Translations under genes and position numbers: made by a program | Shown here: positions 376 to 39,173 of the stretch, in pieces | Layout of the letters: every line of letters starts with the position of its first letter | Position numbering within the stretch: the first letter of the stretch is position 1 | Origin: Desulfobacterales bacterium | Lineage (GTDB): Bacteria > Desulfobacterota > Desulfobacteria > Desulfobacterales > JAHEIW01 | Reading direction: 5' to 3' | DNA length: 41,966 nt | Assembly: GCA_050122495.1 (NCBI GenBank) | Contig: JASFIU010000003.1 | Location: 1 to 41,966, forward strand | The notes under the pieces: model-generated | The model's input: the letters and a program-made list of their open reading frames with translations, nothing else | Told to the model about the DNA's origin: nothing | Database searches by the model: none

Positions 376-689
376 TACCTTAATCTTCCATGAAAATTAA
401 TGAGAACCGAAAATTAATTTTAGTGTCACAAATTTAAGCAAACTGGCATGGCATAACAAATTACCGATCATTAATAAAGGATCATAATCATTTTATCTCA
501 TTACTTTTCACCCTCACGGGCGAGCCGGAGGCTTCCATCTGCTGCGTTATTAAGGCCGAGGCATCCCGCTTATAGCGGGATAGCCTCAGCCTTAAATGCA
601 CCGCTTTGCGGCATGAAGCATCTGATTTTTAAAGATTAAGGAACTTCTCCTTTTATATGAAAGCCTCCGACTCGTGGAAAATCAAGGTA
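376..689. mobile_element. TA-ended MITE/ERIC-like element, copy 1 (314 bp, with internal insertions)
   Basis: 18-bp imperfect TIRs TACCTTAATCTTCCATGA / TCGTGGAAAATCAAGGTA; core nearly identical to 29707-29908. Confidence 0.75.
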
Positions 690-28371: not shown

Positions 28372-29301
28372 CTAACCGGTGGAAAACCACAATGGATTGG
28401 TCCAGGCGCGTTTCCCTGCAGTGTCCTCGATCTCCAGACGGGCATACGGCCAGTCCGGCGGCAATTTGAATTCAGCCTGTAAAACGGATTCTTTTTCCTT
28501 GGCTTTAATCCAGCTCCCGTCCATTCGCGGGCCGATGAGGCGAACATATGCTACCGGTGAGGTTTCCACCTTAACCGTCTTTGCCGTATATTCAATGGTT
28601 TTAAACTCAGGTCCCTGGCTTGCATAAAAGTTGCCCCTGCGAATGGCATCTAAGATCTCTTCCTGGGCACAGGAAGCAGCGTTTACCATTATCCAGCCGC
28701 CTTTCCAGTATTTTTGTTCCGGCTTGAAATGGCTGTCATCTGTAGCAAAACCGAGAAAATCCGGATGCCGCGTCAATACGCTATCCCAGTGAGACAACGC
28801 ATACCCGCTTCCGTTTTCGCAATGGGAAGAATGATTGTAAATCTCCATGCCATCAAAATTATGCCGCTGGCCGTCCTGCGGTGAATTTCCGGTCCAATAC
28901 GGATGGGCCCATATCAACACTGCCCCTTGGGTGCGAGCAGCCTGCAAGGATTTTGAAAAATTGCGGGTGGCGGTGGATAGTTTGAGTGATGCGCCCAGGG
29001 CAACTACATGAAAATAAACTCCTGCCTTATCAAAGCCATCCAGTTCAATACCGTCGATGAGCAATAACCGCGCAGATTTTCGATCTCCATTGAACTCTGG
29101 CAGACACCAGTGATCGGTGACCGCAATAAAATCGAATTTTTCAGCGACATACATATCAACCAGTTCTTTGATCGAAAGATGACCATCCGAGCGATTCGTA
29201 TGCAGATGCAGGCTTCCTTTGAACCATTGTCCTGAGGTTACATACCGATATCTCGATCGATGTTTTTGCCGGATATCTTCTGCGATACAGCTTGTTGTCA
29301 T
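28372..29301 (-). CDS. PHP-domain metallophosphoesterase (CehA/McbA-like)
   Basis: LHLHTNRSDG, AVTDH, GIE, WAHPYW, MEIYN, TDDSH; GAGGAGG RBS before ATG 29301. Confidence 0.9.
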   Translation of the reverse strand: MTTSCIAEDIRQKHRSRYRYVTSGQWFKGSLHLHTNRSDGHLSIKELVDMYVAEKFDFIAVTDHWCLPEFNGDRKSARLLLIDGIELDGFDKAGVYFHVVALGASLKLSTATRNFSKSLQAARTQGAVLIWAHPYWTGNSPQDGQRHNFDGMEIYNHSSHCENGSGYALSHWDSVLTRHPDFLGFATDDSHFKPEQKYWKGGWIMVNAASCAQEEILDAIRRGNFYASQGPEFKTIEYTAKTVKVETSPVAYVRLIGPRMDGSWIKAKEKESVLQAEFKLPPDWPYARLEIEDTAGKRAWTNPLWFSTG

Positions 29302-29603
29302 GGGTATACCTCCTCTGTTTGATCGCATTTATTTGCACTTATATTAAAAGACAAATATTAGATATCGTTGAGAATTGTGTTAAAAATCAGTTTTATAGCA
29401 TCAAGTTATGATTAAATATGGAAGGTTATGGGCGAGGGTGATGATGTCAGAATCGATAAAATGAAAGCCATCCAATCCCATTATTTCCGTAATATGTGCG
29501 AATAGAATTTAAGGGGATTTTAGCCCTTTTTGCTCATGGAAAATTATTCTTGATTTTTATTAGGAAATTATATTTAACCGTACTTTACAATTTTGTAATT
29601 ATT

Positions 29604-29684
29604 AAACGATGGGAGTGTTACGACCATCGACCCTCCGAAGGCAAAAGCCCGTCAGCGCTTTAAACTTTGCGGTTGGAATCGTTT
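29604..29684 (+). ncRNA. Candidate glycine-riboswitch-like (variant) aptamer
   Basis: P1 AAACGAT/ATCGTTT enclosing GGGAGTG...CTCCGAAGGCA-[AAAGC..GCTTT]-AAACTTTGCGGT; compare the glycine consensus GGAGAG...CACCGAAGGAGCAA...AAACTCTCAGGT. Confidence 0.4.
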
Positions 29685-29706
29685 CCATGCAAGGCCCCCG
29701 GTTTAA

Positions 29707-29908
29707 TACCTGAATCTTGCATGAAAAGTAATGAGAAGTTGGTATTATATTTAAAGGATTAAGACCATTTTATCTCATTACTTTTCACCCTGCGGGCGAG
29801 CCGGAGACTTCCATCTGCTGCGTTATTAAGGCTGAGGCATAGTGCACTATAGCCTCAGCCTTAAGTGCCTTGCATATGAAAGCCTCCGACTCGTGCAAAA
29901 TTCAGGTA
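29707..29908. mobile_element. TA-ended MITE/ERIC-like element, copy 2 (202 bp)
   Basis: TIRs TACCTGAATCTTGCATGA / TCGTGCAAAATTCAGGTA (16/18); core shared with 376-689. Confidence 0.75.
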
Positions 29909-29979
29909 ATAAAAGCTTGTAACCGATCAGCGTGAGACGGATTTACTAACCCTGGACTATTATAGACAAGGAGTGAAAG

Positions 29980-31563
29980 ATGAATCTCAATCGATCGAAT
30001 GCAAACGAAGCGCTTCAAACGAAAAATAGATCTCGCGACGTCGCGCCTCAATCCGGTATCTGCAGCAGGTGTTTGGATGGTTGCAAAGGAAATTGCGACA
30101 TGTTCAAAGCCACTTTTCGGGGGCGGGAGCTTCTTTACCCCCAGCCCTTTGGCAGCGTTACCGCCGGTGCCGATAAGGACTACCCGGTGGATTACTCTCA
30201 TTTAAATATTATGGGCTATGCCCTGGGCGCCAAGGGCATTGAAGCCGATCCTGATAAAGCCACCTTTCCAAACGTCAATACCGAAACCGAATACGGCGTT
30301 ACCGATAAGGTCAAGATGAAAGTGCCGATATTCACGGGCGCCCTCGGCAGCACCGATATTGCGCGCATCAACTGGAACCATTTCGCTATTGGCGCCGCCA
30401 TCAGCGGGATCAGTCTGGTGTGCGGGGAAAATGTCTGCGGAATCGATCCCGCATTGGAATTTGGCGACAACGGTCTGATCAAAAGTTCACCGGAGATGGA
30501 TCGCCGCATCGAGCAATATCGCCGCTACCACGAAGGCTATGGTGATATACTGGTTCAGCTGAATGTAGAGGATACCCGTAACGGTGTGGCCGAATACGTC
30601 ATTGAAAAGCACGGGGTTGAAACCATCGAATTAAAGTGGGGCCAGGGCGCCAAATGTATCGGCGGCGAAATCAAGGTGAACTCTCTGGATCGCGCGATTG
30701 AATTGAAAAAACGGGGCTACATCGTAACGCCCGATCCAGAAGACCCTGCGCATCAGGCCTCTTTTAAGGCCGGGCCTTTGAAACAATTTGAGAGGCATTC
30801 GCGCCTGGGTTTCGTGGATCAGGAAGGCTTCATGAAGGAGGTGGAACGGTTGCGCAAACTGGGCGCCAAACGCATCACCCTCAAGACCGGCGCCTATCCG
30901 ATGAGAGAGCTGGCCATGGCCATCCGCTGGTGCAGCGATGCCGATATCGATCTGCTGACCATCGATGGGGCTCCGGGCGGTACCGGAATGAGCCCCTGGC
31001 GAATGATGTGCGAATGGGGCATTCCGGCTATTTACCTTCATTCTATGGCCTATGAGTTAAGCGAACGCCTTGCGAAAAGCGGCAAGCGCGTTCCGGATCT
31101 GGCATTTGCAGGCGGCTTTTCCTCTGAGGACCATGTTTTCAAAGCCTTAGCCCTGGGAGCCCCCTATTGCAAAGCGGTTTGCATGGGCCGGGCATTGATG
31201 ATTCCGGGCATGGTCGGCAAGAATACCGAACGCTGGTTGCGGGACGAAGATGGCGGACTGCCATCAACCGTATCGAAATTCGGATTTACCAAAGAAGAAA
31301 TCTTTATGAACTATGAAGTTCTAAAGGCCAAATACGGATCGGAGATGGACAACATTCCGTTAGGCGCTGTCGGGCTCTACAATGTCGTTGATAAAATTAA
31401 AGTGGGGCTTCAGCAACTCATGGCAGGATCTCGCAACTGGGAAGTGCGCTATATCAGCCGGGACGATCTATTCTCTCTGACAGAAGATTGTGCCAAAATC
31501 ACCGGCATCAAGTATGTGATGGATGCGTATCGGCAGGAAGCTTTAGAGATCATCGATGCTTAA
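29980..31563 (+). CDS. Stand-alone FMN-binding glutamate synthase family protein
   Basis: IELKWGQGAK, TIDGAPGGTG, KALALGA, MGRALM FMN-barrel motifs; N-terminal CSRCLDGCKGNC Cys cluster; no glutamine amidotransferase domain. Confidence 0.9.
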   Translation: MNLNRSNANEALQTKNRSRDVAPQSGICSRCLDGCKGNCDMFKATFRGRELLYPQPFGSVTAGADKDYPVDYSHLNIMGYALGAKGIEADPDKATFPNVNTETEYGVTDKVKMKVPIFTGALGSTDIARINWNHFAIGAAISGISLVCGENVCGIDPALEFGDNGLIKSSPEMDRRIEQYRRYHEGYGDILVQLNVEDTRNGVAEYVIEKHGVETIELKWGQGAKCIGGEIKVNSLDRAIELKKRGYIVTPDPEDPAHQASFKAGPLKQFERHSRLGFVDQEGFMKEVERLRKLGAKRITLKTGAYPMRELAMAIRWCSDADIDLLTIDGAPGGTGMSPWRMMCEWGIPAIYLHSMAYELSERLAKSGKRVPDLAFAGGFSSEDHVFKALALGAPYCKAVCMGRALMIPGMVGKNTERWLRDEDGGLPSTVSKFGFTKEEIFMNYEVLKAKYGSEMDNIPLGAVGLYNVVDKIKVGLQQLMAGSRNWEVRYISRDDLFSLTEDCAKITGIKYVMDAYRQEALEIIDA

Positions 31564-31587
31564 AATTCCAGAAATGTTTGTATTAAG

Positions 31588-31610
31588 AAGTGGTTTTGAA
31601 ACCACTTTCT
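31588..31610 (+). terminator. Hairpin between the GltB-like gene and the GDH-like gene
   Basis: AAGTGGTTT-TG-AAACCACTT with a short T tail; weak terminator or processing site. Confidence 0.4.
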
Positions 31611-31640
31611 AGCTCAGTGCCCCACTGAAGGAGGTAAGAG

Positions 31641-32993
31641 ATGGCAGATACGACTTTGAAGCAGATTTTAGCAAGAGACCCGGAGCAGAAGGAGTTTCAC
31701 CAGGCTGTTCATGAGGTCATTGAAACCATAAAGCCGGTTTTAGATCGCCACCCGGAATATCACCAACTCGGTGTTCTCGAGCGGATTACGGAACCCGAAC
31801 GCGTGATCCTGTTTCGGGTGCCCTGGATGGATGACGAAGGATACGTGCGCGTAAATCGGGGGTACCAGGTAGAAATGAACAGTGCACTGGGCCCTTTCAA
31901 GGGAGCGCTTAGATTTCACCCTTCGGTCAATCTTGGCATTCTAAAATTTCTGGCCTTTGAGCAAACGTTTAAAAACGCCCTGACAACCCTGCCCATGGGG
32001 GGTGCTCAGGGGGGGTCGGATTTTGAACCCAAAGGAAAATCAGATGATGAGATCATGCGCTTCTGTCAGAGTTTTATGAGCGAGCTGTCCCATCACATCG
32101 GTCAGGATACGGATGTTCCGGATGGTGGTCTGGGCGTGGGAGCCCGAGAAATCGGGTACCTTTTTGGCATGTATAAAAAGCAACGCAATGAATTTAGCGG
32201 TGTTTTGACCGGCAAAGGGTTGCAGTGGGGCGGAAGTTATATTCGTCCCGAAGCAACCGGCTACGGTGTGGTCTATTTTGCAGTAGAAATGCTCGCTACC
32301 CGCAATGAAACCCTGGAAGGCAAAACCTGTCTGGTGTCCGGATCCGGGAACGTGGCGCAACACACGGCTCAAAAACTGATTGAACTGGGCGGCAAAGTTT
32401 TGACCCTCTCGGATTCGTCCGGCTATATCTATGACCCGGAAGGTATCGATCAATCCAAGCTGGATTTTGTCAAACGCTTGAAAAATATCAAACGGGGAAG
32501 GATCAAAGAATATATCGATAAATATTCTGAAGCGATTTACACTGAAGCCGATACCTCACTGGAAGCCAATCCCTTGTGGAATCAAAGAGCAGATTGTGCA
32601 TTTCCGTGTGCCGTGGAAAATGAAATTTCAGAGAATGATGCCTATAATCTGCTCAACAACGGCATCAAATTGATCTGCGAAGGCGCCGACATGCCGTCAT
32701 CACCGGGGGCTGTTAAAATCTTTGCGGACAAGAAGATTCTGTACGCACCGGCTAAGGCAGCCAATGCAGGCGGAGTAGCGGTGTCCGGGCTGGAAATGGC
32801 CCAGAACAGAATGCTCCTGAACTGGTCGGCTGAGGAGGTCGACAGCCGTCTGAAGACCATCATGCAGAACATCCATCAAAACTGCCTGGAGGTGGCGGCC
32901 CATTACGACATGCCGGGCAACTATCTGGTGGGCGCCAACAGCGCCGGTTTTGTGCGGGTGGTTAATGCCATGCTGGATCAGGGATTGGTATAA
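31641..32993 (+). CDS. gdhA: NADP-type glutamate dehydrogenase homologue with substituted catalytic residues
   Basis: Full-length GdhA fold (LRFHPSVN, FEQTFKN, RPEATGYG, SGSGNVA, AANAGGVAVS) but GGAQGG replaces GGGKGG and PDGGLG replaces PAGDIG. Confidence 0.92.
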   Translation: MADTTLKQILARDPEQKEFHQAVHEVIETIKPVLDRHPEYHQLGVLERITEPERVILFRVPWMDDEGYVRVNRGYQVEMNSALGPFKGALRFHPSVNLGILKFLAFEQTFKNALTTLPMGGAQGGSDFEPKGKSDDEIMRFCQSFMSELSHHIGQDTDVPDGGLGVGAREIGYLFGMYKKQRNEFSGVLTGKGLQWGGSYIRPEATGYGVVYFAVEMLATRNETLEGKTCLVSGSGNVAQHTAQKLIELGGKVLTLSDSSGYIYDPEGIDQSKLDFVKRLKNIKRGRIKEYIDKYSEAIYTEADTSLEANPLWNQRADCAFPCAVENEISENDAYNLLNNGIKLICEGADMPSSPGAVKIFADKKILYAPAKAANAGGVAVSGLEMAQNRMLLNWSAEEVDSRLKTIMQNIHQNCLEVAAHYDMPGNYLVGANSAGFVRVVNAMLDQGLV

Positions 32994-33066
32994 TCCCTGA
33001 ATTGCGGGATGAAGCGTCTAATTTTATGACGCCAAGGGGCTTCTCATGATAATTAATGAGAAGTTG
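32994..33066. repeat. Partial copy of MITE modules between convergent genes
   Basis: GCGGGATGAAGCGTCTAATTTT..AAGGGGCTTCTC resembles 608-649; CATGATAATTAATGAGAAGTTG resembles 29720-29741. Confidence 0.55.
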
Positions 33067-33075
33067 AGACTGTAT

Positions 33076-34194
33076 TTAATCGTTTAAGCTTTGCCTGAGA
33101 TACGTGTAAAGATCGATCACCTTGAGATCTGATTGCGTGCCGCTCTGGGCGCACGAAAAATGAATCAGGCATTTGGGGCAGGCAGTGACAAGGATTCGGG
33201 CTCCCGTTTGCTCGGCTTCCTGCAAGCGTTCATCCTGAACGGCTTTCGAATAGCTTGAGCAGGCCATCCAGGCGCTGGTCCCGCAGCAAAGTGCATTTTG
33301 GCGGTTACGCTCCATCTCCACCAGGTCAGTATGGGGAAGCGATTTTAAAAGCTCACGGGGCGGTTCGTATATGCCTGCCAGGCGACCGAGGCGACACGGG
33401 TCATGATAGGTAATTGGACCGGCCGTGGACGGCTGGAAAGATAAGCTTGAATCCGGAAGTTTGCGCGCCAGAAATTCCGTCATGTGCAAAACTTCAAAGG
33501 GAAGCTTGCCAAAATACTTTGGATAATATTTTTTAAAGGTGGCATAACCCTCGGGGCAACTAAAGAGCACGGTCTTGGCTCCGGAGGACTGAATCACTTC
33601 AAGGTTCCAGCCGGCCAGCTTGCGGAAGGTCGCGTGATCTCCACACCATAATGCATCGTGCCCGCAACAGCGTTCATGATTGCTGATGACGGGTTCAATT
33701 CCCATTTTATTTAGCAATGTGAGCACACTCCGCCCGGTCTCCAGGGCGGACAGGTTCAAATATCGGAAGGTCACGTCAAAGAAAGGCAGGCACCCAACAA
33801 AATAAAAATATTCCCCGGTGTCCCCAAAAGCTCCCGCTTCACGAGCCCACTGAGTACGCTGCTGTTTTAAGTCAAAGGTTTGCAGACCGGCGACTGCCTG
33901 CAAAATACCGTGATGGCTTTCTTGAGGATAATTTCCAGCGCTGCGAGCCTCCTGGCGGTGGGCACTGATGAATTCTGGGAAGTCAATCTCTGCCGGACAG
34001 CGTTCACTGCAACTTGCGCAGCTCAAGCAGGCCCAAATTTCGCGACTCTGAACGAGACCGCCATCCGGATCCAATACAGCTTGTTTGATGAGCTGTCTCG
34101 GCGAAAATGTAGACAGCTCACGGCTGATGGGGCAGCTTCCGGTACACAGACCGCATTCCATGCAATAGTCGATTTGTTTTTGAGTAAGATCCAT
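33076..34194 (-). CDS. HdrD/GlpC-like Fe-S protein with CCG domains
   Basis: CMECGLCTGSCP and CLSCASCSERCP ferredoxin motifs; ERCCGH, HDPCRLG, LCCGT, TACPKC. Confidence 0.9.
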   Translation of the reverse strand: MDLTQKQIDYCMECGLCTGSCPISRELSTFSPRQLIKQAVLDPDGGLVQSREIWACLSCASCSERCPAEIDFPEFISAHRQEARSAGNYPQESHHGILQAVAGLQTFDLKQQRTQWAREAGAFGDTGEYFYFVGCLPFFDVTFRYLNLSALETGRSVLTLLNKMGIEPVISNHERCCGHDALWCGDHATFRKLAGWNLEVIQSSGAKTVLFSCPEGYATFKKYYPKYFGKLPFEVLHMTEFLARKLPDSSLSFQPSTAGPITYHDPCRLGRLAGIYEPPRELLKSLPHTDLVEMERNRQNALCCGTSAWMACSSYSKAVQDERLQEAEQTGARILVTACPKCLIHFSCAQSGTQSDLKVIDLYTYLRQSLND

Positions 34195-34207
34195 ATCTTT
34201 ACATTAT

Positions 34208-34624
34208 TCAATTTTCAATCTTCAATTCCGGTTCAAGCGTTTTGAGCAATTCAACAAAATTATGAATTTCTTCTGCAAACGCCGCCCCTTCGGATGCTGA
34301 AATCCATTTCAGTCGCAGGCGGCGCTTATCGATCCCAAGCAATCTGAGAATTTCCCAGGTCTCTTCAATGACCTTTTCACATTTCACATTACCGTCCAGG
34401 TAATGGCAGTCGCCGATATGTCAGCCTGAAACCAGTAACCCGTCTGCCCCCTTAAGGAAAGCTTTTAACAGGAAGCCGTGATTGATTCTGCCGGTACACA
34501 TCACGCGGATCAGGCGCACATAGGTCGGATACTGAATGCGGGACACCCCTGCCAGATCGGCTCCGGCATAAGCGCACCAGTTGCAGACAAAGGCTAAAAT
34601 TTGAGGTTGCGCTGCATTTTTCAT
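34208..34624 (-). CDS. mvhD: MvhD/FlxD [2Fe-2S] subunit, selenoprotein (Sec at TGA 34421-34423)
   Basis: [19 protein letters not shown], then [15 protein letters not shown]...WISASEG in frame to a stop at 34208 (138 aa). Confidence 0.92.
34387..34405 (-). promoter_or_regulatory. Bacterial SECIS element
   Basis: CATTACC-TGGAC-GGTAATG hairpin 15 nt 3' of the in-frame UGA. Confidence 0.75.
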
Positions 34625-34657
34625 TTTCACAATGGCCAGAAATTAATTATTCAATAT

Positions 34658-37600
34658 TCAATCTTCACTTTTCAATTGGTAACGGTCTTCAATCATCCCA
34701 TTGATTTGCTCATCTTTAAAGTGAGACAAGGAGGCCGCTCCGGTGGGGCAGGCCACATTACAGACCCCACAACCCGTACACAGTGATTCTGTCACCAGAG
34801 CCCGCTGCCGGCCTTCGGGAACTTCGGTTACATTGATGGCTTCAAAACTGCAGGCCCTTTCGCATTCACCGCATGCCCGGCAAAGTTCGGCATCCACCCG
34901 ATTGATCATGCCTTCAGCCACAATTTCCTTTTTGGAAAGCACGGTGACTGCCCGGGAAACTGCTCCACGGGCTTGCGCGATGCTTTCATTGGCGAATTTG
35001 GGGCCCTGGGCCAGTCCGCAGAGATAAAAACCGGGCGTCGCAATATCGAGTGGTCTCAATTTCGGGTGGGCTTCCATGAAGAATCCATCTTCATCCAGGG
35101 GCAGCCGCATGGCTTCGGCCAGCTGTTGGCTTTCTTCCCGGGGACGAATGGCGGCGCTCAAAATCACCAGATCCGTTTGCAGCTCAACCGTTGCCTGCAA
35201 TTGCGCATCAAAAACATAAACACCGAGGGTGCCGTCTTGATTGCTTACCCGGGGCTTGTGGTCAAGCTCGAATCGATAAAAGCGAACGCCATGTCGGCGT
35301 GCTTCCGAATAGTACCTTTCTTTGAAGCCAAAGGTACGGATATCCCGGTACAGGACCGATATCTGCGCATTCGGGTTAATGGTTTTTAATTTCAAACTGT
35401 TTTTAATGGCCGCTGTGCAGCACACTCGGCTGCAATAAAGATGTTCGGGCTCACGCGAACCGACACACTGAATCATGGTGACCCGCCTCAGCTTCTTGGC
35501 AGCGTCGGGATCTGATTTCAACCGATCTTCAAATTCTTTTTGGGTGATCACGCCGGGGTGCCGGCCATAAAGGTATTCGGTGGGTGTATGTTCCTGTCCG
35601 CCCGTCGCCACAACCACGACACCATGAGAGATGGTCTGGGACTGATCTTTGACCGTAATATGAGAAGTATAATTGCCACAACTTCCGGTAATGGATGTCA
35701 CCTGTGCTTCTCTGTAAACCGTGATCAAGGGCTGATTTTCAACTTTCTGAATAAGATCTCGAACATATTGAGCTGGATTGGCGCCGTCTTCAGTGTAATA
35801 TAGGGTACGGGCATTGCCGCCCAATTGAGCGCTTCGTTCCACCAGGGTGGACTCAAATCCCTGTTCGGCAAAGGCCAGAGCAGCGCTAAGACCGGCGAGC
35901 CCGCCTCCGACGACCAGGGCTTTTTGAATCACCGCATAGGATGTTTCGTAAAGCGGTTCTAAAAGACGGGCACGCGAAACTGACATTCGCACCAGTTCCT
36001 TAGCCTTATCCGTTGCCTCTTTCGGCGCGGCCTGATGGACCCAGGCATCCTGCTCACGAATATTGGCGAGTTCAAAGAGATAGGGATTGAGGCCGGCTTC
36101 ACGCAGCGTATTGCGGAAAAGCGGCTCATGGGTTCGCGGCGTGCAGGATGCCACCACCACCCGGTTGAGATTATGGTCCTTAATTGCCTGCTTAATTTCC
36201 TGGAGTTGATCGGTGGAGCAGGCAAACATGCAATCGGTTGCATATTTTACGTTCGGCAGCGTACGGGCAAATTCGGCAACCGCCTTCACGTCAACCACAC
36301 CGGCAATATTGATGCCGCAATGACAGACGAAAACACCCATACAAGGTTCTTCTCCAATGACGTTGCGTTCCGCAAGGGGAGATGGGGTCGTCACCAGTGA
36401 ACCTCTTGTTTCCGCTAACAGGGAGGTTGCCTGGGCGGCAGCGCTGCTGCCCTGTTGAACGGATTCCGGAATATCTTTGGGCCCCTGAGCAGCGCCGCAG
36501 ACATAAATCCCGGGCTTTGAGGTGGAGACCACATCCAACGATTCGGAGGCACAGAAGCCATGCTCATTTATTTTTAAGCCAAGGCGTTTTGCCAATTGCA
36601 CAGTTGAAGCGTTCGGACAAAGACCGACGGAAAGGACGACCATATCATATGTTTCTTCCTGGAGGTGATGGTCCGGCGCGGCATAAGAAATGCTCAAGGT
36701 ATCATCTTCGGGATTCGGAATCACTCTGGAGATCAGGGATCGCACGTAGCGGACGTCATTTTCTGATTCGGACTTCTCGTAAAACCGATCGAATCCCTTA
36801 CCCTGGGCCCGAATATCAATAAAAAAAATGGCGGTGTCGATGTCCCGGGCATGTTCTTTGGTGATTATGGCCTGTTTGGTGGCAGACATGCAGCATACGG
36901 CCGAACAGTAATCGCTTCCCATATGGCTGTCACGGGATCCCACACACTGGATCCAGGCGATACGGCGCGGCTTTTGGCCGTCAGAGAGGCGTTGGATGTG
37001 GCCCTGGAAAGGACCGGCTGCTGAAAGGATGCGTTCGTATTCCAAACTGGTGATGACATTGGGCCACCGTCCGTAACCATATTCTCCTTTCGAGCGCGCA
37101 TCAAAGGGTTCAAATCCCCCGGCCAAAATCAACGCCCCCGTTTCGACGGTGACGATTTCATCTTGCTGGTCGAAAATAACGGCTTTATTTTTACACACTT
37201 TTTCGCAGATCCGACATTTTCCTTTTATAAAATAGGTGCAATGTTCTTTATCAATGGTGTAAACAAGGGGGACCGCCTGAGGATAAGGGATATAAATGGC
37301 TTTGCGCTGATTTAGATTTAGATTGAATGGATCGGAAACTATTGCAGGGCACTTCTCAGCGCAAATGTTGCAAGCCACGCATCTTTCCGGATCAACACCA
37401 CGGGCTTTCTTTTTAAGACTTAACTGAAATCGGCCCGGCTCGCCGTCTAAACTGAGAACATCAGTATACGCAAAGATATCGATATTGGGATGATTGGCCA
37501 ATTCCGCCAGCTTGGGGCCCAGCATGCAAGAAGAGCAATCATTGGTGGGGAAGGTTTTGTCCAGCTGCGCCATAACCCCTCCCACATGGGGCCTTTCTTC

Positions 37601-37726
37601 TACTAGATGCACTTTAAAGCCGGAATTGGCAATATCCAGGGCCGTTTGGATGCCGGCTATGCCGCTGCCGACGATGGTGATGGATCCGATTTTTTCTGTA
37701 TGCGGTTTTATTTGTTCCGGGGTCAT
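34658..37726 (-). CDS. hdrA: Large heterodisulfide reductase subunit A-like flavoprotein (two FAD modules)
   Basis: GSGIAG, DKTFPTNDCSSC, QCVGSR..CSAVCC, FVCHCG..SCTPRTH, second GGGLAG/QCVGSR..CSRVCC, ferredoxin motifs; ATG 37726 overlaps the hdrB stop (ATGA). Confidence 0.93.
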   Translation of the reverse strand: MTPEQIKPHTEKIGSITIVGSGIAGIQTALDIANSGFKVHLVEERPHVGGVMAQLDKTFPTNDCSSCMLGPKLAELANHPNIDIFAYTDVLSLDGEPGRFQLSLKKKARGVDPERCVACNICAEKCPAIVSDPFNLNLNQRKAIYIPYPQAVPLVYTIDKEHCTYFIKGKCRICEKVCKNKAVIFDQQDEIVTVETGALILAGGFEPFDARSKGEYGYGRWPNVITSLEYERILSAAGPFQGHIQRLSDGQKPRRIAWIQCVGSRDSHMGSDYCSAVCCMSATKQAIITKEHARDIDTAIFFIDIRAQGKGFDRFYEKSESENDVRYVRSLISRVIPNPEDDTLSISYAAPDHHLQEETYDMVVLSVGLCPNASTVQLAKRLGLKINEHGFCASESLDVVSTSKPGIYVCGAAQGPKDIPESVQQGSSAAAQATSLLAETRGSLVTTPSPLAERNVIGEEPCMGVFVCHCGINIAGVVDVKAVAEFARTLPNVKYATDCMFACSTDQLQEIKQAIKDHNLNRVVVASCTPRTHEPLFRNTLREAGLNPYLFELANIREQDAWVHQAAPKEATDKAKELVRMSVSRARLLEPLYETSYAVIQKALVVGGGLAGLSAALAFAEQGFESTLVERSAQLGGNARTLYYTEDGANPAQYVRDLIQKVENQPLITVYREAQVTSITGSCGNYTSHITVKDQSQTISHGVVVVATGGQEHTPTEYLYGRHPGVITQKEFEDRLKSDPDAAKKLRRVTMIQCVGSREPEHLYCSRVCCTAAIKNSLKLKTINPNAQISVLYRDIRTFGFKERYYSEARRHGVRFYRFELDHKPRVSNQDGTLGVYVFDAQLQATVELQTDLVILSAAIRPREESQQLAEAMRLPLDEDGFFMEAHPKLRPLDIATPGFYLCGLAQGPKFANESIAQARGAVSRAVTVLSKKEIVAEGMINRVDAELCRACGECERACSFEAINVTEVPEGRQRALVTESLCTGCGVCNVACPTGAASLSHFKDEQINGMIEDRYQLKSED

Positions 37727-38589
37727 GAGCCATCCCACAGGTTGAGCTGCCGGAGAAGAGAAAAAGGATCTGAGATATGTCGCGCCAACCAGCGTTCAAC
37801 CCCGGCGAGGTTATGGGCCAGTCCAATCAGTTCGGTAAAGTAATAGATCGGGAAAGAAAACCGTTTGCCCCAATCCGCTCCGATCGATTCCTGATGCATG
37901 TCCAGATTGGCCTGGCACATCTGGCAGGATACGACAATCGCCTGGGCATCGACCCGCTGAGCCATATCATAGAGCTTTCCCACCAGGCTCGAAACGATGT
38001 CCCGGCGCGAGAACACCTGACTGGCGCCACAACAGTCGGTTTTGTACGGCCACGGAATTGGCGTGGCACCCAGATTCTGAATGATGCGATCCAGCGCCTG
38101 TGGATTTTCAGTGTCGGTTGCCTCGGTGATCTCCGGCGGGCGGTTGGCCATACAGCCGTAATAGCATACGACCTTTAAACCCTCCAGCGGTTTGCTTATG
38201 TTTTTGGCCATTAATTTTAACATGGGTTCGGTGGACAGAAAATTTGCCAGATCCCATACGTTGGGCACGGAAGCTTCCAGCTGGATATCGTAACGCTTTG
38301 CGAAATCCTGATTGAGTGCCCAGATTGCCGTTTTGAGTCGATTGAAACACATGGGGCAGGGAACCAGCATGTCCGGGTGCGGAAGACTGGCAGCCAGATT
38401 CAGCGTTCGACCGGCCAGTTCGACGCTTGCCTGATGATCGATGCTGTGGGCGGCGGTTGCTCCGCAACAATTCCAATCGGGAATCTCTTCTAATTGAATG
38501 TCCAGAGAAGTGCAAATTCCGATGATAGATTCAGCGTAATCTCTTGCGGTTCCTTCCAGCGAACAGCCGGGATAATAGGTTGCCTTCAT
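37723..38589 (-). CDS. hdrB: Heterodisulfide reductase subunit B
   Basis: YYPGCSL, WNCCGA, PCPMC, YYGC, DCCGAS, SCQMCQANLD. Confidence 0.93.
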   Translation of the reverse strand: MKATYYPGCSLEGTARDYAESIIGICTSLDIQLEEIPDWNCCGATAAHSIDHQASVELAGRTLNLAASLPHPDMLVPCPMCFNRLKTAIWALNQDFAKRYDIQLEASVPNVWDLANFLSTEPMLKLMAKNISKPLEGLKVVCYYGCMANRPPEITEATDTENPQALDRIIQNLGATPIPWPYKTDCCGASQVFSRRDIVSSLVGKLYDMAQRVDAQAIVVSCQMCQANLDMHQESIGADWGKRFSFPIYYFTELIGLAHNLAGVERWLARHISDPFSLLRQLNLWDGS

Positions 38590-39173
38590 GATGGATACGA
38601 TCTCTTTTTATGACGACCCAGTATTTTGCGGACCTCTTTTTTTCCTTTGATTGTTTTAGTAAGCACCGGAAATCTTTTTTTGCGGATCATCTGCCAGCCC
38701 AGCTTGATTTCATACCGCCAGGTGCCGGTCTGCCATAACCTCAGGAACTCACCGCTTCGCAAGAAATATTGCGGTAGGAAGGTTGTCTCAAATGCCCGGC
38801 CCCATCTCTTTACATCTTTTAAGAAGGCGTCATGCAAGGTTAGGATCTTTGGCTGGGGGCTAGGGATGCCTTTTTGAATGGCCATTTCTTTGAGACCATC
38901 CATGAGTTCGGCAATTTTAACGTCATTCGGACAACGCGTTGTGCATGTTTCGCATGCGGCGCACACCCAAATCGTGTGACAACTCAGCACAACTTCGGGT
39001 TGCCCGATAATCACGAGGCGGATCACCTCGTCCGGATAAAGATCCATGGCAAAGGTGACCGGACAGCCATTGGTGCACTTGCGACATTGGAAACAGGCGC
39101 CTGCCTGATAGGGTCCGGCAGCTTCAAGCTGCTCTAAAAAGTGATAGTCCGGAATTAACGTTTTCTGAGACAT
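38586..39173 (-). CDS. hdrC: Heterodisulfide reductase subunit C
   Basis: CFQCRKCTNGCP and WVCAACETCTTRCP; ATGA overlap with hdrB. Confidence 0.92.
   Translation of the reverse strand: MSQKTLIPDYHFLEQLEAAGPYQAGACFQCRKCTNGCPVTFAMDLYPDEVIRLVIIGQPEVVLSCHTIWVCAACETCTTRCPNDVKIAELMDGLKEMAIQKGIPSPQPKILTLHDAFLKDVKRWGRAFETTFLPQYFLRSGEFLRLWQTGTWRYEIKLGWQMIRKKRFPVLTKTIKGKKEVRKILGRHKKRSYPS

Follow-up and report, generated by a model that had tools for sequence, protein, structure and literature searches.

What does a protein with the fold of a glutamate dehydrogenase (GDH) do when the residues that perform the reaction have been replaced? This question is raised by one gene in the window, the whole stretch of 41,966 nucleotides that was analysed. 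The gene encodes a GDH-fold paralogue, here called Q-type, and lies downstream of a gene for an FMN-binding protein. The features of the locus are as follows.

29980..31563, + strand: coding sequence of the conserved upstream partner, a 527-aa FMN-binding protein from the glutamate synthase family (assigned from Pfam, synteny, the AF2 core and the Atlas cluster name)
31564..31640, + strand: 77-nt intergenic spacer containing a hairpin of 9 bp around 31587-31608
31630..31634, + strand: ribosome-binding site GGAGG, with the ATG 6 nt further on, as read from the sequence
31641..32993, + strand: coding sequence of the Q-type GDH-fold paralogue, 450 aa, with Q123 for the catalytic Lys, G163 for the catalytic Asp and D350 for the Asn at the alpha-carboxylate and nicotinamide
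32007..32009, + strand: CAG codon of Q123, at the position of C. symbiosum K125 and E. coli K126
32121..32129, + strand: codons GAT GGT GGT of D161-G162-G163; G163 corresponds to the catalytic Asp165 and D161 to Ala163
32613..32618, + strand: codons GTG GAA of V325-E326, which turn ATQNE into AVENE; all 141 Q-type sequences have E326
32688..32690, + strand: codon GAC for D350, which corresponds to SpGdh1 Asn340 and EcGDH Asn348

The Q-type gene is real, conserved and under purifying selection. The initial annotation had described an intact reading frame behind a GGAGG site, and 31641..32993 indeed contains no stop and no frameshift. Misassembly or gene decay might be suspected, as the source genome is a metagenome-assembled genome (MAG) of 597 contigs and 85.6% completeness. 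However, an independent DNA contig (X2 record 9) matches 31808-32813 without a single difference, including positions 32007 and 32121-32129, which the initial annotation had singled out for a check of sequence support, and no variants are listed within the gene. This contig and one from RNA library X20 (record 12) both match the CAG of Q123 with 0 differences. Transcript support consists of short contigs from two RNA libraries, and such libraries can hold DNA; the shares in the RNA runs are small (0.05-0.11), and the two runs examined gave short contigs. Homologues with the same Q/G substitutions, another check that had been proposed, are plentiful, as 141 distinct sequences from databases and genomes share the Q-type states. 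The median NG86 dN/dS is 0.070 (274 usable of 300 pairs), in agreement with the earlier view that the protein is retained by selection although the catalytic Lys and Asp are missing. The ratio is 0.073-0.081 for the three closest Q-type pairs, 0.059 in domain I and 0.088 in domain II, and 0.037 for the canonical paralogues of the same genomes. The matching DNA contig, the 141 sequences, the intact frame and the dN/dS of 0.07 ruled out an assembly error or a pseudogene.

No regulatory signal stood out in the scans of the spacer and its surroundings. The folding energy of its hairpin is no better than that of shuffled sequences, no terminator-like site was called inside it, and promoter-like and terminator-like sites do not occur above their frequency in shuffles. 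An Rfam scan of 29200-33200 returned sub-threshold miRNA-like matches alone, which sit on a palindrome.

The protein belongs to the GDH family over its full length. Pfam ELFV_dehydrog_N (PF02812) matches residues 52-180 (E 2.8e-45) and ELFV_dehydrog (PF00208) residues 197-448 (E 1e-83). Alignment to a GdhA model, as the initial annotation had recommended, placed the protein above the cut-off of the NCBIfam equivalog NF006929 for NADP-specific GDH, EC 1.4.1.4 (696 bits compared to 536), and the solved NADP-GDH 5ijz_A could be aligned to it residue by residue (E 4.9e-159). It shares the two-domain fold of the 50-kDa hexameric NADP-GDH class (5ijz/5gud, E. coli GdhA 4bht, C. symbiosum 1bgv) and the carboxylate- and NADP-binding residues of that class. 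Unlike that class, it has Gln for Lys, Gly for Asp and Asp for Asn, along with 10 more fixed changes, and its gene is paired with that of the FMN protein. Compared to 5ijz_A, GGGKGG has become GGAQGG, PAGDIG has become PDGGLG, KGGLR has become KGALR, ATQNE has become AVENE and EGANMP has become EGADMP, while K87, K111, RPEATGYG, GSGNVA and AANAGGVAVS are retained. All five of these active-site changes, which the initial annotation had listed, can be read in the codons and the alignment, but two of its points do not extend to the whole clade. Among 25 clade members, position 89 of KGALR is polymorphic (A12/G9/S4). Position 161 is D19/G5/E1, and the argument that A161D adds a charge to the pocket is weak because some clade members have G or E in place of D161.

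The missing residues are those at the center of the reaction. The catalytic Lys of GGGKGG (CsGDH K125, EcGDH K126) is replaced by Gln123, the catalytic Asp of PAGDIG (CsGDH D165, SpGdh1 D153) by Gly163, and the Asn of EGANMP (SpGdh1 N340, EcGDH N348) by Asp350; all three original residues are present in 34 of 34 canonical GDHs. Dean et al. reportedly observed in 1994 that mutants of Asp165 lost most of their activity. The C. symbiosum numbering rests on a +2 offset from the match to 1bgv_A (query 5 is chain 7), and the earlier assignment of K125, D165 and A163 fits both this offset and the CsGDH residue list in the available part of bioRxiv 10.1101/2024.12.26.630402. In SpGdh1, eight side chains hold 2-iminoglutarate, with an Asp holding the imino nitrogen, according to the accessible text of PMC12301742, and imine formation depends on the catalytic Lys, according to that of PMC8784811. 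By these accounts, 3 of the 13 clade-defining positions fall among the eight side chains (PMC12301742), and Q123, G163 and D350 replace three contacts to the imino nitrogen and alpha-carboxylate of 2-iminoglutarate (PMC12301742, PMC8784811). In contrast, the carboxylate ligands K87, Q108, K111, R202 and S382 (K89, Q110, K113, Arg and S380 in CsGDH terms) are unchanged in 141 of 141 Q-type sequences. At the NADP site, G234, G236 and N237 are found in all 141 and S257, D258 and S259 in 140. The Lys, Asp and Asn that contact the substrate at C2 are lost, while the residues that bind the carboxylates and the nucleotide are all kept. The Q-type protein has thus probably lost GDH activity and probably still binds its ligands.

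These states mark a single clade, which is separated from canonical GDHs by 13 of 450 positions. New residues at seven positions (Q123, L164, E326, D350, R390, L392 and R439) are fixed in all 141 sequences. In the tree, 25 of 25 Q-type rows fall into one group with an SH-aLRT of 100 and a stem of 0.17; the trees come from quick searches with branch support from SH-aLRT only, and the genomes sampled are MAGs and close kin and do not count as independent. A second, canonical gdh, which the initial annotation had suggested looking for, is present elsewhere in the source genome at C300:56-1405, and its product is 71% identical to the Q-type protein. A canonical GDH co-occurs in 15 of 19 Q-type genomes, the remaining 4 being 71-87% complete. 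The Q-type gene never adjoins the canonical gene, which lies on other contigs or far away.

The neighbour of the Q-type gene is the FMN gene. Its 527-aa product carries an N-terminal CxxCxxxCxxxC motif, has no NCBIfam match, and matches Pfam PF01645 weakly and partially (E 2.7e-15, residues 278-408 only). It lacks the full set of amidotransferase, FMN and GXGXG domains plus GltB that makes up a complete glutamate synthase; the GXGXG match and the stronger PF01645 matches of the source genome are on contig C2. In an AF2 model of moderate quality (pLDDT 65.9, residues 1-97 below 50), the core is predicted to be a TIM barrel most like FMN oxidoreductases, and Foldseek returned general FMN TIM-barrel matches (TM 0.3-0.5) and no specific family.

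The pairing of the two genes is conserved. At 16 of the 17 Q-type loci that have 400 nt or more of upstream DNA, the FMN gene is the immediate upstream neighbour in the same orientation. As controls, 1 of 62 loci of other GDHs and 0 of 80 metagenome GDH loci contain it. The metagenome scan, which sought an independent lineage with the same neighbour by using P0217, a distant representative with non-K/G163/D350 states, returned no close relative (best 51% identity), and 78 of the 80 loci were canonical. Of 201 genomes examined in the order, 143 encode the FMN protein. Among 68 orthologous FMN-gene loci, the gene directly downstream encodes a GDH in 22 and a response-regulator/PPDK_N protein in 12 plus 3, and neither kind is found there in 30. 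Most FMN-gene orthologues have no GDH neighbour, and the FMN protein can therefore do without a GDH-like partner; the genes adjoining it in such cases encode HTH-cupin proteins, PAS histidine kinases, integrases and proteins of no family, none of them informative. PF01645 is absent from all 92 GDH-containing proteins of 789-2250 aa, which indicates that GDH and glutamate synthase are not fused among them. Complex prediction for the FMN protein and the GDH-like protein scored 0.00 in two runs without controls, which speaks neither for nor against binding. We infer a putative functional or physical partnership between the two proteins.

Across the order, active-site loss among GDH genes linked to the FMN gene is not confined to the Q-type clade. 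At least one of K, D and N is missing in 19 of the 22 GDH genes downstream of the FMN gene. The Lys position in these genes is Q, H, R or I, intermediate states also occur, and at least three changes of the Lys state are required on their tree. The replacement residues differ between lineages, which fits loss of catalysis and not the gain of one new catalytic residue. Lys is kept in the stepwise intermediates L142 and L156; L142 has it together with Glu163, Gly165 and Asp350, and this relative might be active. In the L152 type, the Lys alone has been lost. In a sister clade, termed A-type, Lys has become Ala or Ser, and no conserved same-strand partner was found at its loci. The Q-type lineage derived from a GDH gene that was already linked to the FMN gene. 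The unit with the FMN gene, the FMN-linked series with other states and the sister clade go beyond what the initial annotation had described.

The reading that we favor, with a probability of roughly 0.5, is that the Q-type protein is a ligand-binding, non-GDH paralogue that acts with the FMN protein. Derived from a GDH, it would no longer perform the glutamate dehydrogenase reaction but would still bind NADP(H) and a C5 dicarboxylate (2-oxoglutarate or glutamate). It would most likely serve as a regulatory, scaffolding or substrate-presenting subunit alongside the FMN protein encoded upstream, and ordinary GDH chemistry would be left to the canonical GDH encoded elsewhere in the genome. This reading draws on the active-site losses, the low dN/dS, the single clade, the synteny with the FMN gene, the repeated loss of Lys, the canonical copy and the precedents discussed below. 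The missing fusion, the FMN orthologues that mostly lack a GDH and the possible activity of L142 were counted against it. Furthermore, the invariant new residues and the intact substrate and NADP sites are equally expected of a new enzyme. A neofunctionalised enzyme that uses NADP(H) and a dicarboxylate for other chemistry is possible if rather unlikely; it might move hydride onto or off a preformed imine, or perform another function at C2 that needs no activation of water or ammonia, and it may act in sequence with the FMN protein. Invariant NADP and carboxylate ligands and seven fixed new residues, two of them new pocket acids (E326 and D350), argue for it, as do apparent shifts by two positions (the acid stands at 163 instead of 165 in most members, and the Arg at 390 instead of 392), the Lys-keeping intermediates L142 and L156, and the ability of the family of the FMN partner (PF01645) to handle 2-iminoglutarate at an FMN site. 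However, the acid at position 161 is missing (Gly) in part of the clade, the gene context yields no candidate substrate, and the Lys position, being Q, H, R, I, A or S by lineage, has not converged on a new catalytic residue. It appears quite unlikely that the GDH-derived protein and the FMN/Fe-S protein make up a so far undescribed two-protein enzyme or switch in nitrogen assimilation and pass 2-iminoglutarate unhydrolysed between NADP(H) and FMN sites.

In another reading, the Q-type protein would be a regulatory subunit that forms mixed hexamers with the cell's own canonical GDH, as GdhA of Thermus does with GdhB. The available part of PMC9570180 confirms the earlier statement that GdhA of Thermus thermophilus is an inactive regulatory subunit, and the GdhA-GdhB heterohexamer (PDB 3aoe) resembles the present case in role, with a non-catalytic paralogue beside an active one. 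The 71% identity and the co-occurrence in 15 of 19 genomes are consistent with such an arrangement, but the conserved neighbour is the FMN gene and never a canonical gdh, unlike the Thermus-type pairing; four Q-type genomes, though incomplete, show no canonical copy; and Thermus GdhA is of another GDH subfamily (3aoe_E, only E 1.4e-37 over query residues 45-273). We regard mixed hexamers as improbable. It is more doubtful still that the Q-type protein works as a GDH by substitute residues. Its score above the equivalog cut-off, its retained NADP- and substrate-holding residues and the acid that most members have two residues ahead of the lost Asp would suit a working enzyme; however, the imine-forming Lys and the imino-nitrogen-holding Asp, as described in the accessible parts of PMC8784811 and PMC12301742, are both missing, the 13 clade-defining changes include no Lys, and K, D and N are universal in the canonical set. 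For a subunit acting with the FMN protein, another precedent is the "counter-enzyme" GltAB-GudB of B. subtilis, in which, according to the available text of bioRxiv 10.1101/2021.04.12.439528, a glutamate synthase and a GDH-family hexamer form one assembly controlling glutamate metabolism. Here too, genes of the GDH and glutamate synthase families form a conserved pair. However, GudB is active and GltAB is a complete synthase, whereas the Q-type protein lacks the catalytic residues and its FMN partner, a divergent stand-alone FMN-domain protein, has no amidotransferase domain.

A literature search, covering listings and passages of text, found no account of a GDH paralogue of this kind. The name "NADP-specific glutamate dehydrogenase" has been given to hundreds of metagenomic and MAG proteins in the clade, and the curated equivalog model accepts them; metabolic reconstructions of Desulfobacterales consequently count a GDH that probably is none. 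If the two-protein enzyme were real, the repeated loss of the water-activating Lys (to Q, H, R or I) would be adaptive and not degenerative. The conserved pairing offers a first handle on what this FMN-binding member of the glutamate synthase family, widespread and so far uncharacterised, may do. The Q-type clade, its sister clade and the intermediates constitute a natural series of stepwise active-site remodelling under purifying selection, a useful basis for work on the ways in which a central metabolic enzyme gives rise to pseudoenzymes or new activities.

The window carries a glutamate dehydrogenase (GDH)-like gene next to a gene for an FMN-binding protein of the glutamate synthase family (the FMN gene).

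29980..31563, + strand: FMN-protein CDS, 527 aa, adjoining the GDH-like gene upstream with a 77-nt spacer
31630-31634, + strand: GGAGG ribosome-binding site of the GDH-like gene, read from the sequence
31641..32993, + strand: GDH-like CDS, 450 aa, uninterrupted ORF
32007-32009, + strand: codon CAG of Q123, read directly
32121-32129, + strand: codons GAT GGT GGT of D161-G162-G163, read directly
32688-32690, + strand: codon GAC of D350, read directly

The initial annotation described an intact but apparently catalytically dead GDH, and its observation is right and real. The ORF is open over 450 aa behind its GGAGG, the codons of Q123 and residues 161 to 163 lie where they had been placed, and both GDH domains are matched along the whole length (Pfam); the NADP-specific GDH equivalog model (NCBIfam) gives 696 bits, above its cut-off of 536. 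Alignment with the closest solved relative (5ijz_A, E 4.9e-159) displays all five motif changes that had been listed, namely GGGKGG to GGAQGG, PAGDIG to PDGGLG, KGGLR to KGALR, ATQNE to AVENE and EGANMP to EGADMP; the remaining motifs named there are unchanged.

The chance that the gene is an artefact or in decay is negligible. A DNA contig of sequencing run X2 spans 31808-32813 with 0 differences and one of run X3 spans 31925-32815 with 5 differences, the run that best matched the window (X1) having been excluded as a possible source; the comparison with the read runs listed no variant within the gene. The altered states are common to relatives. Among the best 120 of 8000 scored relatives, which are 81-97% identical to the window protein with one at 67%, GGAQGG is found in 113 (GGAEGG in 1, GGGKGG in 1, pattern-unmatched in 5), Gly-Leu-Gly at the Asp position in 119, EGADMP in 109 (10 pattern-unmatched) and A[VMFA]ENE in 110. 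The combination Q123/G163/D350, which marks the Q-type, recurs in 141 of 197 distinct sequences when database relatives are pooled with genome loci. The median Nei-Gojobori dN/dS of the Q-type is 0.070 (274 usable of 300 pairs), which argues against decay, and the window gene compared with its three closest relatives gives 0.073-0.081 at dS 0.50-0.57; both Q-type domains are constrained (0.059 and 0.088). The canonical paralogues in Q-type genomes give 0.037.

A tree built from 68 GDHs of relatives, by a quick search with no bootstrap, places the 25 Q-type rows in a single clade (SH-aLRT 100, stem 0.17) nested within Desulfobacterales GDHs. Thirteen positions define it, with one residue in at least 95% of Q-type and another in at least 85% of canonical GDHs (122, 123, 129, 155, 159, 163, 164, 181, 326, 350, 390, 392 and 439); 123, 163 and 350 hold by construction, as the Q-type set was chosen by them. 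Within the tree-defined clade, Q123, G163, L164, Q195, E326 and D350 are each present in 25/25. Of the five changes originally pointed out, two vary among the 25 members: KGALR (position 89: A12/G9/S4) and A161D (position 161: D19/G5/E1). Because of the latter variation, the argument built on a negative charge at position 161 is weakened.

In the alignment, the residues replaced in the window protein are exactly the three at the substrate C2 (Lys by Q123, Asp by G163 and Asn by D350), and K87, Q108, K111, R202 and S382 are retained. Mutants of Asp165 reportedly lost nearly all activity in the hands of Dean et al. in 1994. According to the available part of a study of SpGdh1 in complex with 2-iminoglutarate and NADP+ (PMC12301742), Gln98, Lys101, Lys113 and Asn340 contact the alpha-carboxylate, Lys77, Arg192 and Ser377 contact the side-chain carboxylate, and Asp153 holds the imino nitrogen. 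An excerpt on the E. coli enzyme names K92, K116, K126, N348 and S380, with K126 acting in imine formation (PMC8784811), and the accessible portion of bioRxiv 10.1101/2024.12.26.630402 numbers K89, Q110, K113, A163, G164, D165 and S380 in C. symbiosum.

A second gdh, canonical in all its motifs, is present in the same genome (contig C300, 56..1405; 449 aa, 71% identical to the window protein). It groups with canonical GDHs of the same genus in the 68-GDH tree, so contamination is unlikely. Among 41 genomes searched, 15 of 19 with a Q-type have a canonical copy; the four in which none was found (G005, G010, G013 and G021) are 71-87% complete.

The FMN protein has an N-terminal CxxCxxxCxxxC motif and a weak, partial Glu_synthase match (Pfam, E 2.7e-15, residues 278-408); no NCBIfam match and no solved relative were found by sequence, and its Atlas clusters are named 'FMN-binding glutamate synthase family protein'. 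Its AF2 model is a TIM barrel (pLDDT 65.9, core 80-90), with lactate oxidase, IDI-2, Dus and IMPDH as top Foldseek matches (TM 0.3-0.5). The genome's stronger Glu_synthase match (FMN domain, 192.7 bits) and a GXGXG match lie together on contig C2 (10387-12281), so the genome has two members of the family, the window gene being the divergent second one. The C2 arrangement resembles archaeal-type split glutamate synthases. No GATase_2 match was found in the assembly, which is 85.6% complete.

Of 17 public-genome loci that extend at least 400 nt upstream of the Q-type GDH, 16 have the FMN gene in front of it (83-95% identity), some of these loci coming from genomes also in the 41-genome search; the exception is a 5'-truncated Q-type copy (L049). 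In the control sets, the FMN gene was present at 1 of 62 loci carrying other GDHs and at none of 80 GDH loci from metagenomes. No fusion was seen among 92 longer GDH-containing proteins. The apparently damaged copy in genome G022 (L049/L020) can be aligned from residue 57 onwards only, and it lacks the upstream FMN gene.

Several further features surround the pair. The FMN-gene leader (29703-29914) holds a palindromic dispersed repeat, ~210 nt in length, that has two long hairpins (fold z-score -7.6) and resembles a MITE-like or REP-like insertion; another copy lies at window 475-599, and at least 8 more, at 75-94% identity, on contigs C199, C387, C21, C100, C315, C155, C306 and C25. The intergenic region upstream of the FMN gene is 650 nt in the window and ~211 nt in locus L032. 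In relatives, a GAF-ANTAR regulator gene (RNA-binding antiterminator type) often lies upstream of the FMN gene (e.g., L051:271-990; also L140, L141, L150-L153, L155, L156, L158-L161, L169, L170, L177, L178, L186, L187, L191, L195 and L197); it is absent there in the window, and the genome has only weak matches (28-30% identity). Downstream, a convergent cluster of heterodisulfide-reductase-like (Hdr-like) genes (33076-39173) is common only to the nearest kin.

33076..34194, - strand: CCG/4Fe-4S protein
34658..37738, - strand: HdrA-like flavoprotein, 1026 aa, with ferredoxin domains
37723..38589, - strand: CCG protein
38586..39173, - strand: 4Fe-4S protein

Of 201 genomes belonging to the order, 143 have the FMN gene; what follows it was examined in 68 orthologous loci (74-100% identity).

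Genes downstream of the FMN gene
Q-type GDH, directly downstream: 9/68 loci
Other altered GDHs: 10/68 loci
Canonical GDH: 3/68 loci
992-aa response-regulator/PPDK_N gene: 15/68 loci
Neither GDH nor 992-aa gene: 30/68 loci
Contig too short: 1/68 loci

Other altered GDHs, by locus
L142: Lys kept, E163, G165, D350
L148: K to I, E163, G165, D350
L144 (3117-4463, genome G220): K to R; read in three frames, apparently damaged, beside the FMN gene
L152: K to I only
L156: E163, N to E
L163: K to R
L165, L167: K to Q, E163, Asp kept, N to T
L166, L168: K to H, E163, N to S

In an 80-row tree, the FMN-adjacent altered GDHs and the Q-type form one group of 54 (SH-aLRT 93). Since a canonical FMN-adjacent GDH stands at its base, the FMN-GDH linkage is older than the remodelling. 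A clade of 29 (SH-aLRT 99) unites L142 and L148 with L163 and the Q-type, and the non-Lys state requires at least three changes. On the line leading to the Q-type, the Lys was lost after the Asp and the Asn had changed.

In other families of the order, the 992-aa gene (response regulator and PPDK_N, PEP-utilising, ATP-binding) separates the FMN gene from a canonical GDH (L051:2915-5893, L140, L141, L145-L147, L149-L151, L154, L159-L162, L171 and L188), the GDH being visible beyond it in L051, L171 and L188. Database proteins P0202, P0203 and P0211 are fusions of PPDK_N (and a receiver domain) with a GDH part, and the window's own genome has two homologues of the 992-aa protein, on contigs C84 and C19. 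There are hints that this protein may be linked to GDH.

GDH-like proteins without the Lys occur in other lineages too. The A-type, a sister clade of the Q-type (12 rows), has Lys changed to Ala or Ser, the Asp kept and Thr206 changed to Ala, with the motif GGG[A/S][S/G]G, Asn350 to Ser in most, and a dN/dS of 0.047. Its loci (L112, L115, L121, L125, L126, L129-L131, L024, L025, L053, L054 and L202) are at other genomic sites and share no conserved same-strand neighbour. The A-type was not found in the window's own genome (G000) and is present in 8 of 19 Q-type genomes, so that some have three GDH paralogues. The Lys position was compared in the best 150 of 12,512 50%-identity representatives, a sampling that over-counts odd, small clusters: 117 have K, 23 have a different residue and 10 do not align there; the distant Lys-less representatives P0217 and P0266 also have Gly163 and Asp350. 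Further Lys-less examples are P0204, P0205, P0208, P0209 and L214. Oomycete kinase-fused and plant GDH-like proteins have H, A or G at this position, and one metagenome locus combines K to A, A163E and N to S. No published description of such proteins was found in the literature searched, supplements aside.

We suggest, with a probability of about 0.5, that the Q-type may be a non-catalytic ligand-binding partner of the FMN protein, serving as a regulator, scaffold or substrate presenter. A GDH duplicate would have given up GDH chemistry, kept its ligand sites and become functionally tied to the FMN protein. This proposal draws on the different residues at the Lys position in different lineages, on the canonical GDH that the same genome usually has, and on known inactive GDH-family subunits and a known glutamate synthase-GDH assembly. 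In the parts of the sources available, Thermus GdhA is such an inactive regulatory subunit (PMC9570180), and a GDH-family member of B. subtilis enters the assembly (bioRxiv 10.1101/2021.04.12.439528). Mixed hexamers like those of Thermus are an unlikely state for the Q-type, and residual GDH activity, in a protein with all three C2 residues replaced, is more doubtful still. A new NADP(H)-dependent activity is a tentative alternative that deserves more weight, since all ligand residues are invariant, as are seven new ones.

The initial 'pseudoenzyme' reading of the window protein is plausible as a prediction from sequence. Inactive or repurposed enzyme paralogues are an already known kind of protein; what is added here is the conserved pairing with the FMN protein and a stepwise, repeated remodelling of GDH.
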